Of a DNA stretch of 64,000 nucleotides, positions 3,297-63,401 are shown piece by piece. The translations under genes and the position numbers were made by a program. The notes under the pieces were generated by a model. That model was given only the letters and a program-made list of their open reading frames with translations, ran no database searches and was not told the DNA's origin. The DNA is from a virus: positions 1 through 64,000 of IMG/VR virus record IMGVR_UViG_3300043411_001575; one strand, 5' to 3'. The number at the start of each line of letters is the position of its first letter. The first letter of the stretch is position 1.

Positions 3297-4835
3297 TTAT
3301 GAATTTATTGGAGTTATATATTGTTGGCTTATTCCATTATAGAAAGTTATATAATCAACAACATCAGTTCCTTTAATTATTGTATGATTACCTGAATCAT
3401 AAATAAGTGTTGACAATGAGAAATCAACACCACTAACAAGTGTTTTAAATTCAGCATCTATTAAAGAATCGTTAAAAACAGAATTAATTACAGAAGCATT
3501 GAATAAATTATTTGCACAATCTGTGCCGAATGTGTTACCATCTAATACTGCATTAATTAAATTATATTGAAAGTTTATACCAACTGTGTTACCTCTAAAA
3601 AATTGAAGAATTATATTAAAAGCAAATTCACTATCAATTATATTGTTACTAAAATTAACACTTGTTTTATTACCTGAAAAATTAACAGCTATATTATTAT
3701 TTTGAAAATTATCACCAATATTATTATTACTAAAAGTACCACCTAAAACATTATCTGTAAAACCATACGCTATTGTATTTTGCTGTACTACTCCTTCAAA
3801 CGTATTATCTATAAAATCTCCACCAACATTAGTTCTTACAAAATCAAGAATAATAGAATTATTCTGACAACCTGAGCCAAAGGTATTACTAACACAAACT
3901 TTTAAAAAGGTATTTCCATAAGAGTTTGAATCAAAATAACAATCATTTACTGACTCATCCGTTAAAAAAACATTATTATTAAGCTTAGTTGTAAATAACT
4001 TACCATCTATAAAATTATTAATAACTACATCGTGAACATTAGCTAAAGGGTTAAATGTAGGATAGTCTTTAAAAGCCCCACCATTATCAGTAGTAACAGT
4101 AAATACACCACTTGAAGGTGAAGTTTCCCATCTGCGGAAAATAACATTTCTCCAATCGTACCAAATAGCTATGTTTAGTAAATTATCTTTTCTGAACATA
4201 ATTCTACCTCTGTCACCACCCTGACTTGTCGTGTCGATTAGTTCATAAAGAAGTGTATCATCAGGATAAACAGTACTTATAGCTAAATCAGATAATGTAT
4301 TTATTGATGTAGCTGTAACTATAATAGGTTCTATTGTGCCTGTATGAACATCTGCTGTTTTAGGTATATTTTCTCTTGTTCTAAAATCAGTAATACAATA
4401 TTTTTGACCTTTAACAAGAGAAGAGCCTGTTACAAGTGCGTCCAATTCAGACCATGTAACATCAATGCATGGTAAAGAACTTGCTCCACTTACAACATCT
4501 GAAACAAAAGTGTAATTATTTATTCCACTAATTATTAAAATACCACTCGCTCCATTTGTAGTTACATCAAATTTTTGAACACCATTAACAACATCGTTAT
4601 CCATTCCTTCAAACACGATTTTATTGACCGCTGCATTGTTTCCAATATCCTTAAATCTAAATCCAAAAATAAAACCTGAATTTCCTGAATTATTGTTGAA
4701 GTAGTTAAAAATAGTTTGTATTTTAGGAAGAACAACAGTAACCTCTCCACCTGTACTATCAATATATAATTGGTAATCAGTAGGACTCAAAAAGGTCTTT
4801 CCTGATGTAATATTTCTTGATACCGTTTGGCTCAT
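3297..4835 (-). CDS. tail-fibre/structural-like protein with beta-helix repeats
   Basis: 512 aa; C-terminal Asn/Phe/Gly repeats of about 11 aa (NTFGSGCQNNS, NNIGDNFQNNN, NTVGINFQYNL). Confidence 0.5.
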   Translation of the reverse strand: MSQTVSRNITSGKTFLSPTDYQLYIDSTGGEVTVVLPKIQTIFNYFNNNSGNSGFIFGFRFKDIGNNAAVNKIVFEGMDNDVVNGVQKFDVTTNGASGILIISGINNYTFVSDVVSGASSLPCIDVTWSELDALVTGSSLVKGQKYCITDFRTRENIPKTADVHTGTIEPIIVTATSINTLSDLAISTVYPDDTLLYELIDTTSQGGDRGRIMFRKDNLLNIAIWYDWRNVIFRRWETSPSSGVFTVTTDNGGAFKDYPTFNPLANVHDVVINNFIDGKLFTTKLNNNVFLTDESVNDCYFDSNSYGNTFLKVCVSNTFGSGCQNNSIILDFVRTNVGGDFIDNTFEGVVQQNTIAYGFTDNVLGGTFSNNNIGDNFQNNNIAVNFSGNKTSVNFSNNIIDSEFAFNIILQFFRGNTVGINFQYNLINAVLDGNTFGTDCANNLFNASVINSVFNDSLIDAEFKTLVSGVDFSLSTLIYDSGNHTIIKGTDVVDYITFYNGISQQYITPINS

Positions 4836-11200: not shown

Positions 11201-12462
11201 TATTATTAAAAAACATGAAAACAAAATTATTTTTTAGAGATGACGATGAGTTTTGCCACACTCTAGGTGTACACATAAAACACATGGAAGAAAACGGAAT
11301 CAAAGAAATGGATGTGTTTGAAGCTAAGGTTGAATACGGAACAGGATTTTTCTTCTGCAAAGAATTTTATCAAGTGGGTGAATCAGGAGAAGGTTGCGGA
11401 AAGTTTTGCGATAAGTATATTCCTAACAATGGTAAAAACGGAAAGTGCAAGCATCATGGAAATGTTTATGAGCAAACTGACAAAGTATTAAAAATTAAAA
11501 TTACTGATTGATGAAAAAAGAAGGTAAAGAAAATAGAGGAGCTAAACGATGCTTCTATCCTGTTTTTGAGATAATCGAAGATAAACTATCGTACAAAGGA
11601 ACATGTTTAAACAAAAATCATGTTTCAAAAGTTATCGGAAATTATTCTGCAAATGTTGGAATGTACTTAAACTTAGAATTAAATAAGTTAGGTAATTTTG
11701 TTGTTGTAGAAATTGAAGCAAAAGATGATGAATTTATTGATTCCAAAACTTCAATGATTAGAGCTTGGAACGAAGCAGAGAGAAGATACAACAGAAGTAA
11801 ATTAAATTTCACTATTGATAAGATGAAGGATTTGAGTGATGAACAAGTAAACCAAATAAGCAAAATATTAAACGATGGAAAATAAACCAATTAAAAAAAA
11901 CTATCAAATACCATACGTAGAAAGATTCACTAGTGTTGGGAATAAATTCCCTAGACAAACAACTCTTTTCAATATTCATGGAATTGGAGTATATGTGGAA
12001 CACGAAAAAGGTAATTTACCAACAGAACAAGAAGTTTCAAGGCATTTGATAGGAATAAGCACTCCACGTAGGATGGATATTCAAGCAGAATCGTTAGAAG
12101 AAGCTTTAAAAGAGTTTTTTAGCTATCCTGCATGTAATACAGGATTTAAGAAAAAGGCTCTCGAAATTGCAGATTCAGAAGGTTATCCTGTGATAGAATA
12201 CTCAGGGTGTAAATGGATGTTAAATGATAAAGATATGAGGAAATGCCAAAGATATGCGGATGAAGACAAAGTAGATAATATGTTCTGCATACTTGATGGA
12301 TTAGACGAGCCGCCATGCGATTGCCCAATTTTAAAGCAAAAACAATTGAATGGTTTTCGCTCAGAGACCATAAATATTGGGACTGTTTGGGTTAAAAAAT
12401 TCCAACCAAATGTAATCCAAATGAGTCCTATTAGAGGCGGAATCAGACCTGTAAAATGTTAA
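5292..12462 (+). other. block of about 20 small hypothetical early/accessory genes
   Basis: Tightly packed co-oriented ORFs of 68-201 aa, including paralog pair 6918-7199/7201-7464 (both end AINKAT). Confidence 0.7.
5991..6509 (+). CDS. hypothetical protein, paralog family with 54873-55361 and 18820-19272
   Basis: Shared KEIKAxIFxQY...IxDED...QYLQxKGY motifs; real start probably MEIPKE. Confidence 0.6.
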   Translation: MIILKKKLKNKIMEIPKEIKAGIFSQYVGSSIITWENLLTGNILQCPLTYQHVLNVALGVRIRYDLEPQLILKPIHEIEDEDIGEIIKIEFGQGDSPTIYRNENYTKIVFKVNGVEKRISFEKYFDGDPIKSEVRLNKIILIYQYLQTKGYDTPQYLLGGKTLNQSGLALYK

Positions 12463-24922: not shown

Positions 24923-26362
<1,440 letters not shown>

Positions 26363-45120: not shown

Positions 45121-45864
45121 TTACCAATTACCCTTACCTGAATGATAATCATTTAATCTGTTTTTTCTTTTTCCGTTACCTATATTCTTTCCGCAATAAG
45201 TAGGAGTCTGAGCATGGCAGTTAGGGCATATGTTTCTTATATTAGAAACTTTGTCATTTTCAGAATCTCCATCTATGTGGTCTAATTGTAATGGTATTTT
45301 ATTTCCCATCCAATCATGTAAACCGCAAACCATGCACTTGTGACCATTTTTATCAATTAGATATAATTTAAGTATTTTATTCTTACTCGTTCCTGATATG
45401 TTACTTTTAAATGTTCCATCTTCTATTTTTTTGAAATTATATAGTTTCCTGTGATAATAACTACATTCACGAGAGCAAAATTTAGCCACATGGTTTTTTA
45501 ATTTTTTTCCACATATTATACAATTTAATTTTTCCCTCCACATTGGATGACTATTTCCTGACATCAAATATTTATTATTACATTCTCTTGAACACGATTT
45601 AAAATCTTTGTTTTTAGAACCAATAGCCTTCTCGTACTCTTTTCCACAATGACATATACAAATTACTCTTTCATACTTTCTTTTATTAATATTTGAATTA
45701 AAATGCTCTATACTTAAATTAAATTTATCTAACAGTTTTTTAATTTTTTTCATGTTAGCTCCGTTAATACTTAATTTTAAAGCTCTACATAAATCACTTT
45801 TTGAATTTGAATTAATTAATATTTTTTCAAATTCTTCTTTTGTTATACTTTTAAAGTCTAGCAT
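45121..45864 (-). CDS. HNH homing-type endonuclease
   Basis: Zn-finger repeats plus CMVCG...LQLDHIDG...N...N...CPNCHAQT. Confidence 0.9.
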   Translation of the reverse strand: MLDFKSITKEEFEKILINSNSKSDLCRALKLSINGANMKKIKKLLDKFNLSIEHFNSNINKRKYERVICICHCGKEYEKAIGSKNKDFKSCSRECNNKYLMSGNSHPMWREKLNCIICGKKLKNHVAKFCSRECSYYHRKLYNFKKIEDGTFKSNISGTSKNKILKLYLIDKNGHKCMVCGLHDWMGNKIPLQLDHIDGDSENDKVSNIRNICPNCHAQTPTYCGKNIGNGKRKNRLNDYHSGKGNW

Positions 45865-46018: not shown

Positions 46019-46028
46019 TTAAAGAACG
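46019..46028 (-). promoter_or_regulatory. boxA-like antitermination motif
   Basis: CGTTCTTTAA directly after terminator 1. Confidence 0.6.
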
Positions 46029-46041
46029 AATTTTTGAACAT

Positions 46042-46070
46042 AAAAAAACCCTGATGATTAGTCAGGGTCT
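46042..46070 (-). terminator. attenuator terminator 1
   Basis: ACCCTGA-CTAATCA-TCAGGGT plus T tract. Confidence 0.85.
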
Positions 46071-46097
46071 CTTATTGTTTGTTTGTGATATATTTTT

Positions 46098-46190
46098 TCA
46101 CCCACACGGACAATACGCTCCTGACAACTGCAATCTAAACTGCGGTTGTTGAGGAAAAAATTGTTGAGTGTATGTGTTTGTTATTTTCAT
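46098..46190 (-). CDS. leader peptide of the Pro/Phe/Gln tRNA operon (MKITNTYTQQFFPQQPQFRLQLSGAYCPCG)
   Basis: Translated by hand; codons 9-18 are all Q/F/P; lies between promoter and terminator. Confidence 0.88.
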   Translation of the reverse strand: MKITNTYTQQFFPQQPQFRLQLSGAYCPCG

Positions 46191-46194
46191 GATG

Positions 46195-46226
46195 CAAAGT
46201 AACGAAATGTTTTTTAATCTACCAAA
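46195..46226 (-). promoter_or_regulatory. promoter of tRNA operon 1
   Basis: TTTG-N20-TTACTTTG, ending 4 nt before the leader ATG. Confidence 0.6.
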
Positions 46227-46270
46227 TTTATTTTGAATTATTTTTAAAAATATTTTATTAACTTCGTGAA

Positions 46271-47857: not shown

Positions 47858-47867
47858 TTAAAGAACG
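47858..47867 (-). promoter_or_regulatory. boxA-like antitermination motif
   Basis: CGTTCTTTAA directly after terminator 2. Confidence 0.6.
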
Positions 47868-47881
47868 AATTAATATAAAAC

Positions 47882-47911
47882 AAAAAACCCCAAACTTTTC
47901 AGTTCAGGGTT
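47882..47911 (-). terminator. attenuator terminator 2
   Basis: AACCCTGAACT-GAAA-AGTTTGGGGTT plus T tract. Confidence 0.85.
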
Positions 47912-47933
47912 CTTATCATGTAAACAAATATGT

Positions 47934-48011
47934 TTAACTACAATAGAGATTTTCCTGAACCGATTGCTTCGGATACAGCGACAAATAACTATGTAATGAT
48001 GTATTTTTCAT
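47934..48011 (-). CDS. leader peptide of the His/Ser/Ser/Tyr/Leu/Leu tRNA operon (MKNTSLHSYLSLYPKQSVQENLYCS)
   Basis: Translated by hand; codons 5-13 are all S/L/H/Y. Confidence 0.88.
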   Translation of the reverse strand: MKNTSLHSYLSLYPKQSVQENLYCS

Positions 48012-48019
48012 AATGGATG

Positions 48020-48050
48020 CAAATTAAAGGATTATTTATTTATCCGCAAA
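48020..48050 (-). promoter_or_regulatory. promoter of tRNA operon 2
   Basis: TTTG-N19-TTAATTTG, ending 8 nt before the leader ATG. Confidence 0.6.
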
Positions 48051-48641
48051 ATTTATTTTTAATAAAAATCATATTGAATTGAAAATGAGTGAAATAAAAT
48101 TATTCGATGCAAATTAATTCTACTTTTTTGACTTTATCCCAAATCTTACCGAATGCAGTAGGATTCAACCCAACTTTTGCAGTCCAATTTGTAGGGGCAA
48201 TCCATTTCTGTCCATCGTGTAAATTACCCACAGAAGCTACAGAAGTACCTCCTCCTGATTTTTTCTTCCAATAAATACGGTACAAACCACATCTTAATTC
48301 TTTAACGTCTTCTTTTTTCATCTTATTTTTTTTAATTTAAAATACGTCTAACTTCAGGAAAACATTTGTCTAATTTATTCTCCCATTCTACTGAGTAACG
48401 TGAATAATAGTCCATGTTTCTATTTACTCTTTCAATAGCCTGCTCTCTTGTGAAATTGTTACATATCATACAGAATTCAATGTGAGTTTCATGAGCATCT
48501 TTAGCTAATTTAAATTTGTCTTTCATTAAAACATCTTTGAAAAACCAATCCATAAACCAATCATATACGATTGGTAATTCTTTTGTTGGATTAGCATTCC
48601 ATTCTTTTAATTCCTTTAATGATTTTATTCTTTTTTTCATT

Positions 48642-56299: not shown

Positions 56300-56349
56300 A
56301 TAACATTTTTGATATTACAAGCAAAAAAGATATTAACAATTTTATAGAG

Positions 56350-56423
56350 TGACTATACAAGGACTCCAACCTTGAATCTTCGAGTTCGTAGCCCGATATG
56401 TTATGCGATTACACTATATAGTC
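56350..56423 (-). tRNA. tRNA-Arg(ACG)
   Basis: TCGGG-CTACGAA-CTCGA; T-loop TTGGAGT. Confidence 0.85.
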
Positions 56424-57487
56424 ATTTGTTTTTTATATCTCCTTACCCAAGAAGTAGCTCCACTCTTAGTTAGTCCAAATAAATTCATTATTTTTTTAAC
56501 TATTTTTTTATCATTTATATTAATGTTGTTTTCAGTTAAAATTTGAATTCTATTCTTATTGAACTTAATTGATTCATCTTTCATATTGTCAAAGTATCCT
56601 GATTTAGAACCATATTTCCTAGCCCTTGACAATCCATTTCTATCAGTCTTTTTAAAACACTTTGATTCATAAAAGTCAGGCATAAATTTAGACATCCATC
56701 CTTTAACTTTTTGTGGTATTAAGTCTGTTATTTCACTAACTCTCTTTGCCCATCCAAACTTAGAAAAATCAATATCTGAATTACTTATTATTTCTATTCT
56801 TTTAGAATGTATATTTTTAAAATTAAACTCATTAATACAATCAGTATATTCTTTACGTGATTTACTTTTAAATACTTCTTTTTTCTGTTTAATATAAAAA
56901 GAATAGTCAATATTACCCATATAATATTCATTCTTTAATCCTGAAATTAAATCACTTACAAATGATTTTTTATATATATTTGAATAGTGTATATCAAATA
57001 ATTTCCATCCTAATTCCTCTATTTCTTCTTTTCTTTTTTGATAATATTCTTTTAGAGAACCATCTCTATTATAATGTTGATTTCCATTTACCTCTATACC
57101 TATTTTTTTATCAGGGAATGCAATATCAATACTAAAAAACCTATTATCTAATGGTTTATACTCTTCTACAAAACTAATATCATTTTCAATAAATAACTTT
57201 TTTAAAATTTCACATGGTACAGATTTTAATTTTTCACTTCGTTTCCAAACGCATTTTTCAGGATTTTCTCGTAGATATAAAGACATTTTCAAACTTAAAT
57301 GCTTTCTTAATTCATCACTATGTTTTATTTTATGTTTTATTTTTTTGATGAAACCTTCTCTTTCAGCTCTATTTAATACATTTTTACCAATACCAAATTT
57401 TTTTGTTATTTTAGTCCAAAGTAATCCATTCTCATGTTCTGATTTAATTAAATCCCAATCTATTTTTGTTAAATCTAATCTCTTCAT
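56414..57487 (-). CDS. DUF559/Vsr-like (PD-(D/E)XK-related) endonuclease
   Basis: FVEEY...FSIDIAFPDKKIGIEVNGNQHY...LGWKLFDIHY; stop lies inside the tRNA-Arg 5' end. Confidence 0.8.
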   Translation of the reverse strand: MKRLDLTKIDWDLIKSEHENGLLWTKITKKFGIGKNVLNRAEREGFIKKIKHKIKHSDELRKHLSLKMSLYLRENPEKCVWKRSEKLKSVPCEILKKLFIENDISFVEEYKPLDNRFFSIDIAFPDKKIGIEVNGNQHYNRDGSLKEYYQKRKEEIEELGWKLFDIHYSNIYKKSFVSDLISGLKNEYYMGNIDYSFYIKQKKEVFKSKSRKEYTDCINEFNFKNIHSKRIEIISNSDIDFSKFGWAKRVSEITDLIPQKVKGWMSKFMPDFYESKCFKKTDRNGLSRARKYGSKSGYFDNMKDESIKFNKNRIQILTENNININDKKIVKKIMNLFGLTKSGATSWVRRYKKQMTI

Positions 57488-57527
57488 AATATTTATTTTT
57501 ATACAAATATATGAATATTATTTTTAG

Positions 57528-57617
57528 AATCCCCGATAGGAGTCGAACCTACATTATTCTTTTAAAAAGAAAGCAAAATTAGAAGTTTTGTGCATTATCC
57601 ATTTATGCTACGGGGAC
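57528..57617 (-). tRNA. tRNA-Arg(TCT) with extended variable arm
   Basis: CAAAA-CTTCTAA-TTTTG; variable region of about 20 nt. Confidence 0.82.
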
Positions 57618-57691
57618 ATATATTTATCTACCTCTTCGCAATCTGCGAGAAGTAAAAAAAGTTTTTATGTGCCTTGTAGTTAACATTGAAT

Positions 57692-58093
57692 TTAATTTTT
57701 GATATGTTTATTAAAGGATAACATTAATCCATTTATATTTTCTTTTCCAACAGGATTAGCACTTTGAATATTATACAATGGTAATTTTAATTTATTATCC
57801 AAACAATATTCTACTAACCATTTAGCGCAATCATATCCTGTTTTTTCTTCTTTCTTTAATAATCTTGATTTTCTTTTACTCATTCCTTTTGCCCTAGCTT
57901 CTAAAGCAACTTCCATTCCTAAATCATGGTCAAAACAAATAGCTTCAGGTAATCCATTTTGGTTAATCCAATCAACAAATTCATTATAAGATTTAACCCA
58001 AATACAATCAAAAGGTTTTTCAATCGGACTATATGAAAGCCAATCTCCTTCAAAAGGATTTCTCAAATCATCTAACCATAAAAGTTTTTTCAT
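57692..58093 (-). CDS. cyclic-phosphate-processing receiver-like domain protein
   Basis: LWLDDLRNP...WVKSYNEF...ICFDHDLG...KTGYDCAKWL...IQSANPVG. Confidence 0.8.
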   Translation of the reverse strand: MKKLLWLDDLRNPFEGDWLSYSPIEKPFDCIWVKSYNEFVDWINQNGLPEAICFDHDLGMEVALEARAKGMSKRKSRLLKKEEKTGYDCAKWLVEYCLDNKLKLPLYNIQSANPVGKENINGLMLSFNKHIKN

Positions 58094-58107
58094 TTTAAAA
58101 ATATTTG

Positions 58108-58180
58108 TGGCTCAGGGGGAACTCGAATCCCCAACCCTCGCATTAAAAGTGCGATGCTCTACCGATTAAGCTACTGAACC
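58108..58180 (-). tRNA. tRNA-Lys(TTT)
   Basis: TCGCA-CTTTTAA-TGCGA. Confidence 0.93.
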
Positions 58181-58270
58181 ATATTAATAATTACTTACTC
58201 TTTCGCTTTCGCAAAAAAGAAGATAAAGATTTTATGTTTCTCGTAACTAACATTGTTTTATTTTTTTATG

Positions 58271-58342
58271 TACCCGTTGATAGAATCGAACTACCGACAT
58301 AATCCATGTAAGGGATTCGCTCTACCCCTGAGCTAAACGGGC
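58271..58342 (-). tRNA. tRNA-Val(TAC)
   Basis: AATCC-CTTACAT-GGATT. Confidence 0.92.
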
Positions 58343-58352
58343 ATTTATTTTG

Positions 58353-58426
58353 TGGAGCGTACAGGATTCAAACCTGTGTAATCTTTCGTGCAAGGAAAGT
58401 GCATAGTCGGACTCTGCCAACACCCC
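58353..58426 (-). tRNA. tRNA-Ala(TGC)
   Basis: CTTTC-CTTGCAC-GAAAG; G3.U70. Confidence 0.9.
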
Positions 58427-58432
58427 ATTTTG

Positions 58433-58505
58433 TGTTCCCTACTTGAATCGAACAAGTGACCTCTCGGTTATGAGCCGAATGCTTCTACCCCTGAGCTAAA
58501 GGAAC
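58433..58505 (-). tRNA. tRNA with CAT anticodon, probably Ile2 (lysidine)
   Basis: TTCGG-CTCATAA-CCGAG; body resembles Ile2; Ile2 versus Met assignment is inferred. Confidence 0.75.
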
Positions 58506-58514
58506 TAATTAATA

Positions 58515-58760
58515 TTATTCTCTCAATGCATCTCTTATAACTTTATTCTTCTGTGTACGTTTATATTTGTTATATCCGCTACATCCAAAACAATTACAAG
58601 GTCTGCTTGTTGTTTTCAAAAAAGTATAACCATTTCCTGTTAATGCTTTCTTAATTTCTTTTTCGTCATTCCAAGATGGATGAGCGAACCAATTTTTTAC
58701 TCTTCTTTTAAATTTTGTTTCTTGTTTATGCCTATTGTAGGCACGACTTAAATTTTTCAT
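58515..58760 (-). CDS. small basic protein with CxCxxC motif
   Basis: 81 aa, Arg/Lys-rich, RPCNCFGC. Confidence 0.6.
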   Translation of the reverse strand: MKNLSRAYNRHKQETKFKRRVKNWFAHPSWNDEKEIKKALTGNGYTFLKTTSRPCNCFGCSGYNKYKRTQKNKVIRDALRE

Positions 58761-58833
58761 AGCTTCAAGGTTATCACCACTAGCGTAGCTTGGCTAATGG
58801 CTTATAGTTTGAATCTATGTTCTTTTATTGTTT

Positions 58834-59355
58834 TCATTTTTTAGCCTCGATTGATTTTTTAATAATAAAACTTATAGTTCCTTTGCTTTTAATATTTAGT
58901 TTTTCAGCTATTTGCTTATACGAAAGTCCTTCAATATGTAATTTAATTATCTCTTCATGATTGTGCTTCTTTACAAATGAAGTAGCTCTTAAAGCCATTT
59001 TCATTCTAACATCAGAAGGTTTATCCATATTGTTTTCTGAAGCTGTTCCTATTAAAATATTGTCTTTTGAATTATCTTTTTTATTCCCATTTAAATGCCT
59101 AACATGTACACCTTTTTTAAATATTTCATCTCCATATTTTTGATAAGCTACAAGACGATGTACCGAAACTTGTTTTGAAACAGATTTACCATCTATCAAT
59201 ATTCTTCTTGAAATATAGTAATATTTAGTCGTTGTATTAGTGGATAAATTATGCTTTCTTTTTTTATAAAAAACATTCCCTTCTTCATCAACCTTATATC
59301 CTACTCTAACAGCCTCTAATAAAGCTAATGTAGATATTGATTCTTTTATTTTCAT
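58834..59355 (-). CDS. HNH endonuclease with C-terminal HTH
   Basis: VHRLVA...VRHLNGNKKDNSKDNI..GT.SEN..D. Confidence 0.9.
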   Translation of the reverse strand: MKIKESISTLALLEAVRVGYKVDEEGNVFYKKRKHNLSTNTTTKYYYISRRILIDGKSVSKQVSVHRLVAYQKYGDEIFKKGVHVRHLNGNKKDNSKDNILIGTASENNMDKPSDVRMKMALRATSFVKKHNHEEIIKLHIEGLSYKQIAEKLNIKSKGTISFIIKKSIEAKK

Positions 59356-59368
59356 TTTGTTATTTTTG

Positions 59369-59442
59369 AGATAATGACCTGAATCGAACAGGTATTTCAG
59401 GTTTTGCAGACCTGTGCCAAAGCCAATATTAGCTACATTATC
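59369..59442 (-). tRNA. tRNA-Cys(GCA)
   Basis: CAGGT-CTGCAAA-ACCTG; U73. Confidence 0.88.
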
Positions 59443-59451
59443 TTTTTATTG

Positions 59452-59524
59452 AGCGAGTAGAGTGAATCGAACACTCATTTCCTGATTGGAAGTCAGGAGT
59501 AATAACACATTATACTATACTCGC
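59452..59524 (-). tRNA. tRNA-Gly(TCC)
   Basis: CCTGA-CTTCCAA-TCAGG; U73. Confidence 0.92.
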
Positions 59525-59528
59525 ATTT

Positions 59529-59693
59529 TTGTTATTGGATTCCGTGAGGACAACGTGTACGCAGGTCGTTACCTTCATTATTCTGTCGTTCACAAATGAG
59601 AATCAAATGTATTTACGGATAATTCTGACTACAAAAATTAATTTGCACAGCTTATCAATGGTTGCGCTTACAGGAGCGGATTACCAATAACAA
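59529..59693 (-). ncRNA. candidate rod-shaped ncRNA (about 165 nt)
   Basis: Ends pair (TGTTATTGG..TCCG with CGGA..CCAATAACA) with nested helices; fills the gap between tRNA-Glu and tRNA-Gly. Confidence 0.55.
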
Positions 59694-59727
59694 TATTTTT
59701 ATTTTCAAAGAACTTAATTTTGTTAGT

Positions 59728-59800
59728 CACCCGTAGCGTGGTCGAAACGCTTTTTAATGGTTGAAAACCATTTGTCCTAACCTACCGTAGACGAACGGGC
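59728..59800 (-). tRNA. tRNA-Glu(TTC)
   Basis: AATGG-TTTTCAA-CCATT. Confidence 0.87.
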
Positions 59801-60691
59801 GTTTTTGAATACCTCAAATGCCTCGTCCGATTCTGTTTTTTCTAATTTTGTTTTCATAATGTTTTTATTTTTTTAATCCAATTATCAGTGGATGCTGTTT
59901 TAAATTTATTTTCAAATTCAACCTCTTTAATTTCTTTGTGAGGTTTTATTTCTGTGTACTTTAATTCTTCTTTTACTACTCTTCCTTTTCTCTTTTTAAC
60001 TAATGGTTTCTTTTCTTCGCTATGAATGTTTCCTTCGCATTTTTATTTTTTAGGAGATAGCCAAACTTTTAACCTATTTAAATACCAATCATCTGATTGT
60101 TTTAAGCTCCTATGAGATTCATGCCTATCAACGTCGTGCATCCATCTTTTAAAGATATTATACTTCGCTACTGGGAACTTTTTTTTAATTGAACTATCAA
60201 ATTCAATTTGAGCCATAATTCCTGTAAGTTTTAAATATTTTTTTCCGTAATCTAAATATTCTTCTTTTGTCATTTTTTTTGTTTTAAAATTGTTATTGCA
60301 AATATATGTAATTTAAACTAATCCGTACAAAATCCTGCTTGGCATCCGCTGCCTGTTCCAAAGTTAAAATCCTGTGCAACCCTATTTTTTTAAATTCAAA
60401 GTAACTACCTTCTTTTTTCCATTCACATTTTGTAGTGCCACATCTTTGCTTCTGACCTATTCTGCAAAATTCAATTTCATTTAACCCCATTGTATTTTTT
60501 TTATTTTAATACCACTGAGCAATGGAGAGCAATTCATTTCATTTATCTTCATTATTTGCAAATAACAAAGGACTACTTTACTCTGCTCTTTACCCACTAC
60601 TCAATATTTTAAGAGTACAATTCAAGCTAACTTCCTACACTGAACACCGCTTCAGCAAGGCTTTGAGCCTATTTTAAATTATACTCTTTTG

Positions 60692-60776
60692 CACAAGCGG
60701 TAGGAGTCGAACCTACACATCCCTTTCGGGCAACAGATTTGGAGTCTATCCATCTCTCCATTGTATTAGCACTTGC
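60692..60776 (-). tRNA. tRNA with CCA (Trp) anticodon and long variable arm
   Basis: ATAGA-CTCCAAA-TCTGT; variable arm CCC-GAAA-GGG; G73; weak D stem. Confidence 0.7.
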
Positions 60777-60786
60777 GTTTTTTTTG

Positions 60787-60861
60787 CAGTTATGATGGGA
60801 TTTGAACCCACGACCTCTACCGTGACAGGGTAGCATTCTAACCGAGCTGAACTACATAACT
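60787..60861 (-). tRNA. tRNA-Asp(GTC)
   Basis: CTACC-CTGTCAC-GGTAG. Confidence 0.93.
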
Positions 60862-60886
60862 ATTTTTTATTTTAAAGAACTATTTG

Positions 60887-60958
60887 CGTATAGAAAAGGG
60901 TTCGAACCTCTGTAACCTTCATTAACAGTGAAGTGCTTAGCCACTCAGCCATCTATAC
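60887..60958 (-). tRNA. tRNA-Asn(GTT)
   Basis: CTTCA-CTGTTAA-TGAAG. Confidence 0.88.
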
Positions 60959-60969
60959 TTTTTTTCAAT

Positions 60970-61044
60970 TGGTAGCGGAAGGGTGACTCTAACACCCGAC
61001 CTTTGGGATATGAACCCAACGAGCTAACCCTGCTCTATTCCGCA
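60970..61044 (-). tRNA. initiator tRNA-fMet(CAT)
   Basis: TTGGG-TTCATAT-CCCAA (three G-C pairs); 1-72 mismatch; encoded CCA. Confidence 0.85.
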
Positions 61045-61614
61045 CTGTTTCATTTCATAATGTAGTTCTCTATGACAATTAGAACAAACAATTATGCATT
61101 TATCAAGTTCTTTTTTTATCTTTTCCCAACACGTTGTAGAATATCTTGATATATTAAAATCTTTTTGTTTTGGTTCAATATGGTGGAAATCAAACGCCCA
61201 TATACATTTATCATATCCACATTTTTCACATTTACCACCTTTATATTTAACTGCTTTTTCTTTAATTTTTTGCCGTGCTGTTTTTACTCTCAAATAATTT
61301 CTTTTTTTTCTTTCTTGTGTACTTAAAATTACTTTTTTTACTATTAATTTTAAATATCTTTTTATTCCTGATACAGAAACATTAAATTTTTCTGCTGTTT
61401 GTTTTAATGTATGTGTTTTATAATACTCTTGAACTTTTAATATTTTTTCATCAGATAGTTTCCTTGTATCCATAAGACCTATATATGATAGATTATGGTT
61501 TTTGCAATGATAACTAATAGTAGATGAAGAGCATTTTAGCTTATTTTTTATTTTGCTATAACTCCACCCTTTCTCTCTTAAATTTAATATTTTATTCTTC
61601 AAACCTTTACCCAT
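61024..61614 (-). CDS. HNH endonuclease with N-terminal HTHs
   Basis: GGKCEKCGY...FDFHH...KC..VCSNCHRELH; start moved to ATG 61614; stop lies inside tRNA-fMet. Confidence 0.88.
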   Translation of the reverse strand: MGKGLKNKILNLREKGWSYSKIKNKLKCSSSTISYHCKNHNLSYIGLMDTRKLSDEKILKVQEYYKTHTLKQTAEKFNVSVSGIKRYLKLIVKKVILSTQERKKRNYLRVKTARQKIKEKAVKYKGGKCEKCGYDKCIWAFDFHHIEPKQKDFNISRYSTTCWEKIKKELDKCIIVCSNCHRELHYEMKQCGIEQG

Positions 61615-61661
61615 ATAAAAATTATTAATGATACAAATATAGTTAAAAGTTCGATAAATAG

Positions 61662-61735
61662 TACGCAAAGATGGATTTGAACCACCGACCACATGATTAT
61701 CAGTCATGTATTCTAACCAACTGAACTATTTGCGT
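61662..61735 (-). tRNA. tRNA-Ile(GAT)
   Basis: CATGA-CTGATAA-TCATG. Confidence 0.93.
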
Positions 61736-61746
61736 ATTTAATATTT

Positions 61747-62055
61747 AAAAATGAGAACGCATGTGTGCTTCTTTGCGTTTTTCTCCAACCGCACAGGAAG
61801 GATTTCCAAAAGTGTTTCTCCACTTCCAAAATAAAATCGTATAGCCTCCAATAAAGAAAAGGTTTTGCGCTTTTCGGTCTTGTACCGCCCTGAAACCTCT
61901 GCTCATCTAAGTTATAGACAATTTTAGTTTCATCCAAATTTGGAGCAGTCCTGTTTTTCAACTACATTCATTTATTTTTTTCATAGAGTTTCTATTTCAT
62001 CAGGTCAAGGCTCGAAGCCCCTTTTTCTCACTGACACTCACAGGTAACTCATTCT
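61747..62055 (-). ncRNA. candidate structured ncRNA (about 300 nt)
   Basis: GC-richer gap between tRNA-Met and tRNA-Ile; ends pair (AGAATGAG with CTCATTTT); several internal hairpins. Confidence 0.45.
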
Positions 62056-62109
62056 AATCAATTCAGAAAATTCTGAATGATATTTTAATATTTCAAAGAA
62101 CTAAAAACG

Positions 62110-62183
62110 TCCCGACAGCAAGATTTGAACTTGCGACACTTTGGATATGAACCAAATGCTCTACCGAACTGAGCTATGTCGGA
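62110..62183 (-). tRNA. tRNA-Met(CAT), elongator
   Basis: TTTGG-TTCATAT-CCAAA. Confidence 0.85.
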
Positions 62184-62246
62184 ATATAAGATTCCTTGCT
62201 GCAAGTCCCCGCACTATATCTGCTTTTATGGGGAGGAATCTTTTTG

Positions 62247-62318
62247 AGCCGTGAGAAGGAATCGAACCCTCGTGCGTAGATTACAAATCTACTGCTTTAC
62301 CAACTAAGCTATTACGGC
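62247..62318 (-). tRNA. tRNA-Thr(TGT)
   Basis: GTAGA-TTTGTAA-TCTAC. Confidence 0.92.
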
Positions 62319-63025
62319 TAAAATGACTTACCATCTCTTGCTCTTTGTCTCCTACTATGCCTTCCATTACCTTTATTTAAAGCTTTATAATTCAGTGTTA
62401 GTGAATGGCAATTTGGACAAATTAACTCGACATTATCAGAATTATTATTTTTAGAATTTCCATCTTTATGATTTAGTTCAATTGGAACTTTTTTTGTTGT
62501 TTCATTTATTTCGTTCCAACCACACTTCATACACTTTTCACCATACATCAATATCAATGTTCTCTTTAATACAAAATCACTTAATCCGTCCGTATCATTA
62601 TTATTTATCCTTTCAATTAATTTTTTATTTCTGTAATCAGAGCAGCAAACAATAGAACAATATTTTGTAAAATTAGTTTTACACTCACTCTCACAATTCA
62701 CGCATTTTGGCTTCTCTTTTTTTTTCTTTCTAATTCTAAATTTATTAGAAAATGAAGCTGAACATGAATTATTACAAAATTTAGTTCTTACAACACGTTT
62801 GCCATTAATAAAATCAATATTACTAATAGAATTTCCACAATTTAGACACTCAATAATTTTCCTTTTCAAGTTTTCAGAGTAGTATCCTTCTCTATTCAAA
62901 TGATTTTTTATCAATCCCCATGTAAGATTTAATTCTTCCGATATTTGCATATACGTAAATCCTTCTTTAATCATTTTTTTAGCAAAATTTGATTGCTCAA
63001 TTGTTATTTTTCTATTAACACCCAT
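62318..63025 (-). CDS. HNH homing-type endonuclease
   Basis: CMKCGW...IELNHKDG...NN...N..LICPNCHSLT; paralog of 45121-45864. Confidence 0.9.
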   Translation of the reverse strand: MGVNRKITIEQSNFAKKMIKEGFTYMQISEELNLTWGLIKNHLNREGYYSENLKRKIIECLNCGNSISNIDFINGKRVVRTKFCNNSCSASFSNKFRIRKKKKEKPKCVNCESECKTNFTKYCSIVCCSDYRNKKLIERINNNDTDGLSDFVLKRTLILMYGEKCMKCGWNEINETTKKVPIELNHKDGNSKNNNSDNVELICPNCHSLTLNYKALNKGNGRHSRRQRARDGKSF

Positions 63026-63116
63026 TTGTTTTTAATAATTAGTTGAAATACAAATTTAACAAAAAAAATAAACAAAGTCAATAATTCAAATAAAACTATT
63101 GGCTCAATACATATTT

Positions 63117-63126
63117 TCAAAGAACG
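63117..63126 (-). promoter_or_regulatory. boxA-like antitermination motif
   Basis: CGTTCTTTGA directly after terminator 3. Confidence 0.6.
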
Positions 63127-63132
63127 TAAAAC

Positions 63133-63162
63133 AAAAAGCCCCAACTTTTTAGGTTGAGGCTT
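63133..63162 (-). terminator. attenuator terminator 3
   Basis: AAGCCTCAAC-CTAAAAA-GTTGGGGCTT plus TTTGTTTT. Confidence 0.85.
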
Positions 63163-63186
63163 CTGTGTTTGTATTTTTATGTTTTA

Positions 63187-63297
63187 TTACACTCCCATTG
63201 TCGTAATTAAACAATACACAGATGCCCCTTGAGTACACGCCTTATCGCCCGTATTCTCTGACCACATATTTTCCACTATAATATTTCTGCGTTTCAT
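63187..63297 (-). CDS. leader peptide of the 16-tRNA operon (MKRRNIIVENMWSENTGDKACTQGASVYCLITTMGV)
   Basis: Translated by hand; the first 21 codons include all 13 amino acids served by the downstream tRNAs. Confidence 0.88.
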   Translation of the reverse strand: MKRRNIIVENMWSENTGDKACTQGASVYCLITTMGV

Positions 63298-63338
63298 TAT
63301 TTTTATTATTTATTACCACACCATGTAGTAATGAGCTG

Positions 63339-63371
63339 CAAATATACAACTATTGTTTTTTTAAATGCAAA
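63339..63371 (-). promoter_or_regulatory. promoter of tRNA operon 3
   Basis: TTTG-N21-TATATTTG on the minus strand. Confidence 0.7.
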
Positions 63372-63401
63372 TTTATTTTCAATTATTTTTTCATTTTACA
63401 T

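Follow-up and report, generated by a model that had tools for sequence, protein, structure and literature searches.

The window analysed here, the first 64,000 nucleotides of a virus record of 169,658 bp (G+C content 30.7%), carries 24 tRNA genes, all on the minus strand between positions 62318 and 44892 and gathered in three groups, and the host of this phage is of the Bacteroidota type. The three groups partition the 20 amino acids among themselves with no overlap. According to ARAGORN, the largest contains 16 tRNAs for 13 amino acids (Thr, Met, Ile, Asn, Asp, Trp, Glu, Gly, Cys, Ala, Val, Lys and Arg), including Arg-ACG, Arg-TCT, Ile-GAT and three tRNAs with a CAT anticodon, of which the one at 60970-61044 is initiator-like; either of the other two may be the lysidine-bearing Ile2 species. 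This block (56349-62318, minus strand) runs from tRNA-Thr to tRNA-Arg-ACG and is interspersed with ORFs and three boxA-like sites. Two of its ARAGORN calls on the minus strand are unusually long, tRNA-Arg(TCT) at 57527-57617 (91 nt) and tRNA-Trp at 60691-60776 (86 nt), and five ARAGORN tRNAs of the window (Trp, Glu, Pro, Leu-TAA and Ser-GCT) score below the Rfam gathering threshold. Elsewhere in the window, on the plus strand, a 476-aa ORF at 24932-26362 has an RtcB tRNA-ligase domain (Pfam E = 1.8e-34), and such a ligase gene fits a phage that repairs or manages tRNAs.

Immediately ahead of the 16-tRNA block lies a 235-aa ORF (62318-63025, minus strand) that matched HNH-like ORFs of other phage contigs by tblastn and resembles the HNH-type endonuclease ORFs scattered across phage tRNA arrays. 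These 708 nt separate a boxA-like site from tRNA-Thr, and the stop codon of the ORF abuts the first base of the tRNA. Insertion of the HNH gene indicates that the locus has been rearranged. Further HNH-related ORFs occur among the tRNAs at 61024-61707 and 45121-45864 on the same strand.

Upstream of the HNH-like ORF, a compact element on the minus strand comprises, in order of transcription, a promoter-like site, a hairpin, a short ORF, an intrinsic terminator and the boxA-like site, and a related element precedes each of the other two tRNA groups. The promoter-like site, of Bacteroidota type, was recognised at 63339-63378 by a pattern scan and by alignment of the three elements; it consists of TTTG at 63371-63368, a 21-nt spacer and TATATTTG at 63346-63339. 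An A/T-rich block ahead of it is common to both sister elements, and a 10-mer at 63378, 48058 and 46233 is common to all three. The predicted 5' end of the transcript forms a 9-bp hairpin (63312-63332) in both minimum-energy and centroid folds, which encloses a three-codon mini-ORF, Met-Val-Trp-stop (63324-63313); this hairpin occurs in the 16-tRNA leader only and both sisters are without it. Next comes the leader ORF (63187-63297), which begins Met-Lys and comprises 36 codons and a TAA stop; the sequence upstream of its ATG is A-rich and unpaired in the folds, and a Pfam family search with the ORF gave no match. The stop codon lies 49 nt before the T-run of the terminator (63129-63164), a distance of 42-63 nt in related elements. 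In this terminator, found by a terminator scan, a hairpin at 63164-63134 with a 12-pair stem, five G-C pairs and a 7-nt loop is followed by the T-run, and folding gives -14.6 to -18.1 kcal/mol. The scan found no second terminator-like site on the same strand down to the last tRNA. The boxA-like site, identified by a motif scan and its consensus match, follows at once at 63115-63126 (CGTTCTTTGA at 63126-63117, then AA).

The original prediction described this element as an attenuator whose leader ORF starts at the ATG at 63297, and the 22 codons quoted from it agree exactly with the sequence and the ORF list. Twenty-one of these 22 codons encode amino acids served by the 16-tRNA operon, the one off-set codon being TCA (Ser), and all 13 amino acids are present by codon 21, as had been claimed. 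The seven amino acids of the other two operons account for only 1 of the 22 leader codons. Where an amino acid is used twice, both codon types are taken (AAA/AAG, GAA/GAG, ATT/ATA, CGC/AGA and ACG/ACT), and a codon-level test bore out the predicted presence of both Arg and both Ile decoding classes. Several of the leader codons are rare synonyms in this genome (CGC at 2%; GTG, ACG and GCG at 7% each), and two, GGC and ACT, could be read by the phage tRNAs only through non-standard wobble.

To evaluate how often such coverage arises by chance, we compared the leader with other reading frames of the genome, a comparison that the original prediction had named as capable of refuting it. Of the 1062 ORFs that begin with ATG and have 22 or more codons in the six frames of the whole genome, only the leader ORF covers the 13 amino acids within 25 codons. 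When 37,882 windows of 22 codons were taken from long ORFs, nine covered all 13, and none of the nine also reached at least 21 in-set codons. In a codon-level version that allowed standard wobble only and counted 15 anticodon classes, a single stop-free 22-codon window out of 103,663 covered all 15 classes, and it starts at 63291, which is leader codon 3; at least 14 classes were covered by eight windows, five of them inside the leader ORF. Random 22-codon windows thus do not reach the coverage of the leader, and because this coverage is unique in the genome, it is not a product of chance. These statistics disfavour the view that the hairpin is merely the terminator of upstream genes, or the ORF a small peptide gene, with fortuitous codon coverage and no regulatory link to the tRNAs, for which it can be said that short ORFs are common in A/T-rich DNA and that no Rfam family scores above threshold at the element.

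We then examined the folding of the leader transcript. In the nascent fold, defined as the minimum-energy fold of a transcript cut just ahead of the 3' arm of the terminator, region 2 (63216-63228, leader codons 24-28) pairs with region 3 (63156-63168) to form an antiterminator of 12 pairs around one A/A mismatch. The pairing originally proposed was longer; its core, 63228-63216 with 63168-63156, was recovered, but the four-base extension to 63211 and 63172 was absent from the fold. The predicted overlap of this helix with the 5' arm of the terminator was borne out, the terminator having been found independently by the scan. The antiterminator contributes -10.3 kcal/mol, against -4.5 ± 2.4 kcal/mol in dinucleotide shuffles of the upstream RNA (n = 500), nine of which equalled it (about 0.02, a moderate signal).

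To locate the positions at which a paused ribosome would favour either structure, we folded the transcript under a ribosome mask that hides the RNA up to 13 nt beyond the first base of the A-site codon. In this model, the 5' arm of the terminator was sequestered as long as the A site was on any of codons 1-20 and became free once it reached codon 21, staying so up to the stop, indicating that a stall in the codon-matched stretch would favour read-through, while unhindered reading would favour termination. The modelled sensor window thus comprises codons 1-20 (63238-63297), and its end coincides with the end of the codon-matched stretch. Of the 13 amino acids, 12 have a codon in it, as do 13 of the 15 anticodon classes; Cys21, Thr22 and the GGG of codon 24, the only standard codon for Gly-TCC, lie at or past the modelled edge. 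A possible region 1 (63286-63292, codons 2-4, 7 nt) pairs with region 2 through 7 bp in the full-length minimum-energy fold only, and the nascent untranslated RNA prefers the antiterminator, a departure from the classical model. Since the untranslated nascent leader folds to the antiterminator at equilibrium, termination would depend on translation or on the weak 7-bp pairing of regions 1 and 2.

The two sister elements of the same genome show the same layout with different contents. The leader ORF at 46190-46098, which precedes tRNAs for Pro, Phe and Gln, contains QQFFPQQPQF, a run of these three residues longer than any other in the genome, whatever the frame, and the leader ORF at 48011-47934, which precedes tRNAs for His, Ser, Tyr, Leu and Leu, contains the nine-codon run SLHSYLSLY. 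Common to all three elements are the promoter-like block, a leader that opens with Met-Lys, a terminator rich in G+C and the motif CGTTCTTT(A/G)A, which occurs on the minus strand of the genome only at these three places. Under the mask model, the window of the Pro/Phe/Gln leader ended at codon 19 and its run at codon 18, and the window of the Ser/Leu/His/Tyr leader ended at codon 14-15 and its run at codon 13. As the three tRNA sets do not overlap, genome-wide composition cannot explain the match of each leader to its own set, and three parallel elements with non-overlapping sets in one genome also speak against a fortuitous arrangement. The sister ATGs lie 4-8 nt past the TTTG box of the promoter (46019-46245 and 47858-48070, minus strand), a geometry found again in the homologous contig L042 described below (1300-1325 and 4575-4595), and the sister mRNAs would, judging from these positions, be leaderless or nearly so.

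These comparisons bear on a second reading, in which the element is a real translation-coupled attenuator that reports general translation capacity rather than particular tRNAs, its codons serving as a generic test message. The sensor window offers just one codon for most of the 13 amino acids, so the leader does resemble a generic sample, and the gate would open whenever translation fails, because a leader that is not translated folds by default into the antiterminator. A generic message would, however, hardly leave out the seven amino acids of the other operons almost completely while including both decoding classes for Arg and for Ile, and the sister leaders are narrow, with 3 and 4 amino acids. 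Together with the codon shifts in L042 given below, which follow tRNAs placed in a different operon, these observations make this reading unlikely.

We next considered the boxA-like site, which the original prediction does not mention. Compared with the published boxA consensus GYTCTTTAANA (PMC5725501), the site matches at 10 of 11 positions at the 16-tRNA element, at 10 of 11 at one sister and at 11 of 11 at the other. The core GYTCTTTRA occurs at 18 sites in the genome, six of which fall within the 18.5-kb tRNA region on the strand that carries the tRNAs, and three of these six precede internal tRNAs. These internal sites (AGTTCTTT followed by GA or AA) are at 62101, 60880 and 59713 on the minus strand, 10-357 nt ahead of the next tRNA, and similar internal sites are present in the phage loci L087, L101 and L019; in L019, a 372-kb contig of a very large phage, a boxA-like site is followed, at reversed-locus positions 12044-12095, by a tRNA with a TTA anticodon that ARAGORN calls a suppressor. 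Close variants of the motif also occur in the rRNA leaders of three Bacteroidota genomes. We read the motif past the terminator as a candidate Nus-factor loading site; its fit to the consensus, its recurrence ahead of internal tRNAs and its likeness to Bacteroidota rRNA leaders resemble rrn-type boxA/Nus antitermination, whereas here the motif belongs to a phage tRNA operon and comes after a terminator that would be conditional. With the boxA-like site behind a conditional terminator, we propose that only polymerases that pass the gate would become termination-resistant. The alternative that the motif belongs to a second promoter, as its -33 element, was rejected for the sisters, where the tRNA begins 11-16 nt past the motif, and for the 16-tRNA element it stands as a possible caveat.

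A host-type counterpart was found at locus L242 (5950-6640) on the chromosome of a Chryseobacterium sp., where a Leu-Gly-Leu tRNA operon is tandemly duplicated. In its first copy, a promoter box is followed by the boxA-like site GCTCTTTAAAAC and then by the first tRNA, with no leader ORF, so this operon appears to have the boxA-like site but not the attenuator. Among bacterial genomes, the combination of terminator and motif gave 120 matches, of which two adjoin tRNAs (L242 and L277) and none precedes 16S rRNA; with so few near tRNAs and none before 16S rRNA, most of these are chance matches.

To determine whether the layout recurs, we searched viral contigs with a pattern of T-run and motif, which yielded 117 and then 59 loci selected without regard to leader content. 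Eighteen motif sites had a tRNA at most 400 nt downstream, often only 7-23 nt past the motif. L100 and L144 lack the leader layout and were excluded as chance matches in GC-rich sequence; each of the other loci that were read has a short ORF whose residues correspond to the tRNAs behind it and whose end lies 42-63 nt ahead of the T-run. In all, the succession of promoter, codon-matched short ORF, terminator, boxA-like site and tRNAs was found in about 15 unrelated phage contigs. At L050, for example, a stretch of only Arg, Leu and Gln precedes tRNAs for Arg, Arg, Leu, Leu, Leu, Gln and Gln, and at L095 a stretch of Phe, Lys, His, Ser and Trp precedes exactly those tRNAs. Broad leaders were also observed before arrays of 13, 19 and 23 tRNAs in an independently gathered collection of 70 loci, found through a 133-aa ORF in the array, of which the closest loci were without tRNAs.

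The correspondence between leaders and tRNA sets was then evaluated by a permutation test in which each leader region, in three frames, was scored against each tRNA set. Across 16 elements, with the near-duplicate or truncated L069, L123 and L081 left out, the matched score was 166.6, compared with 81.7 ± 9.5 under permutation, and none of 200,000 permutations reached it (p ≤ 5e-6); the element's own tRNA set ranked first for 10 of the 16. For 15 elements, the mask model could also be applied, L101, L021 and L050 being left out where automatic terminator detection failed. In-set residues made up 193 of 283 residues (68%) inside the modelled stall window and 42 of 135 (31%) outside it (Fisher 7e-13), and larger tRNA sets went with longer stall windows (Spearman 0.70, p = 0.003). 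This recurrence and set matching in unrelated contigs, as well as the conserved distance from stop codon to T-run, leave very little room for the absence of a regulatory link, which we consider highly improbable.

A further comparison came from the single homologue of the 16-tRNA leader that was found, in a 129-kb contig (L042). The tRNAs there follow the same order (Thr, Met, Ile, Met, Asn, Asp, Trp, Glu, Gly, Cys, Met and on to Val, Lys and Arg-TCT), and the two contigs share almost no 18-mers in the tRNA region. At the place of tRNA-Ala in our window, L042 has a tRNA-like sequence with a TGC (Ala) anticodon (approximately 3764-3836) that both ARAGORN and Rfam missed. The leader of L042 has a GTG start and 33 codons, aligns with the 16-tRNA leader and covers the whole set within 22 codons, the modelled window ending at codon 21-23; the helix strands differ in sequence yet, as judged by eye, can pair. 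Both sister elements are present as well, and tRNA-His and Arg-ACG sit in the Pro/Phe/Gln operon there. Accordingly, a His codon and CGC are found in the Pro/Phe/Gln leader of L042, no His codon is present in the Leu/Ser/Tyr leader, and AGA is the only kind of Arg codon within the window of the broad leader. Leader content, as read from these sequences, thus shifts in step with operon content between the two genomes, down to the isoacceptor, and the leader codons follow tRNAs that were placed in a different operon, which a gauge of general translation capacity would not predict.

Other searches for relatives gave little. A blastn search of 50,697 phage records with the element gave no match, and blastn of the tRNA region returned only tRNA and HNH pieces together with one Cellulophaga-phage ORF outside any tRNA region. 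No relatives were found through the 104-aa upstream neighbour, and among the matches to an exact pattern built from the blocks shared with L042, only L042 itself adjoins tRNAs.

The position of the HNH-like ORF raises a third possibility, that the attenuator is a relic or a minor control and that, after the HNH insertion, the tRNAs came to be transcribed mainly from promoters past the terminator. A pattern scan gave relaxed promoter-like matches just beyond the terminator (63121 and 63090) and inside the array (60331 and 59635), which could bypass the switch, and the 708-nt ORF between the boxA-like site and tRNA-Thr sets this locus apart from L042, where the first tRNA lies 16 nt past the boxA-like site with no intervening HNH-like ORF. 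These downstream matches, however, are off-consensus in their boxes or their spacing, and the ORF of the element is intact, with its full codon set, and both antiterminator and terminator are still present, where relaxed selection would predict decay. We accordingly regard a relic as quite unlikely.

The evidence assembled in silico (the rarity of the codon coverage, the folds, the stall window, the sister elements, the unrelated contigs and L042) thus supports the attenuator reading of the original prediction. The element combines a codon-enriched short ORF, a terminator, a mutually exclusive antiterminator and codons placed where a stall would matter. We consider it probable that a phage tRNA operon is gated here by a multivalent, ribosome-mediated leader-peptide attenuator of transcription, behind which lies a boxA-like site.

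Building on the sequence anatomy, statistical rarity, alternative folds and comparative recurrence, each demonstrated in silico, we infer the following course of leader translation, stalling, read-through and Nus recruitment. Transcription would start at the Bacteroidota-type promoter near 63339, and a ribosome would translate the 36-codon leader as RNA polymerase nears the terminator. When reading is prompt, the ribosome would cover codons 24-28 (region 2) or rest on the stop codon, the terminator would form, and transcription would end ahead of the boxA-like site and the tRNA genes. When a charged tRNA is scarce, from whatever natural cause may bring this about, the ribosome would stall at any of codons 1 to about 20 and leave region 2 free to pair with region 3, thereby sequestering the 5' arm of the terminator. 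The read-through polymerase would then transcribe the boxA-like site, presumably gain Nus-factor antitermination and make the whole tRNA array. Since each of the 13 amino acids has one or two codons in it, the leader would act as an OR gate over the tRNAs of the operon and exert negative feedback on their supply. Unlike classical attenuators, which use runs of codons, this leader mostly offers one codon per amino acid, and a single slow codon may give little read-through. The idea of a switch that responds to tRNA cleavage only is speculative.

The proposed mechanism is a textbook one, here in a variant with a tRNA operon as its target. Multivalent leader attenuators are known from enterobacteria, where ilvGMEDA responds to Ile, Leu and Val and thr to Thr and Ile, alongside trpL, hisL and pheL. 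As in the ilvGMEDA and thr leaders, regulatory codons for more than one amino acid lie in a short translated ORF, and ribosome position decides between terminator and antiterminator; in contrast to them, the regulated genes are tRNAs and not biosynthetic enzymes, 13 amino acids (15 anticodon classes) mostly appear once each where those leaders have runs of two or three kinds, and the element is phage-borne, with a Bacteroidota-type promoter and a boxA-like site after the terminator. Membership in the Rfam family Thr_leader (RF00506) was rejected at 30.4 bits against a gathering score of 55, the alignment lying mainly over the terminator; Phe_leader reached 16.7 against 55, and T-box and other riboswitch models gave no match at the element. 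The pheM leader of the E. coli pheST operon attenuates a synthetase operon in answer to the supply of one charged tRNA, and is thus another case of leader-peptide attenuation on a translation-apparatus gene; pheM, however, controls a synthetase for one amino acid, whereas the product here is a set of tRNAs, which would make the feedback loop direct. In T-box riboswitches, too, a shortage of charged tRNA flips a terminator/antiterminator pair before genes that restore supply, but the T-box binds uncharged tRNA directly and has no ORF, while the proposed element needs a translating ribosome.

Discussion of phage tRNA genes usually centres on codon usage or on evasion of tRNA-cleaving defences, and to our knowledge the control of their expression is largely unknown; full-text searches of the literature on leader-peptide control of tRNA genes found no such paper. 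Work on phage tRNAs as counter-defence (e.g. PMC11555353) provides a plausible selective setting and no evidence for this element as such. Within that setting, we tentatively suggest, with slightly less than even confidence, that large Bacteroidota phages supply tRNAs by sensing demand, through leaders written in the codons of their own tRNAs, and that the near-pangram OR gate over 15 classes is a counter-defence homeostat. Speculatively, the failure of any one class, by host tRNA decay or an anticodon nuclease, would open the 16-tRNA operon; the RtcB-like tRNA ligase encoded in the same genome may be cited beside this reading. The recurrence of the layout in unrelated contigs suggests a widespread and undescribed class of elements. 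If the attenuator reading is true, tRNA genes themselves would for the first time be known to come under attenuator control, multivalent attenuation would stretch from two or three amino acids to 13, and the element would offer a compact natural sensor of decoding speed at many codons at once.
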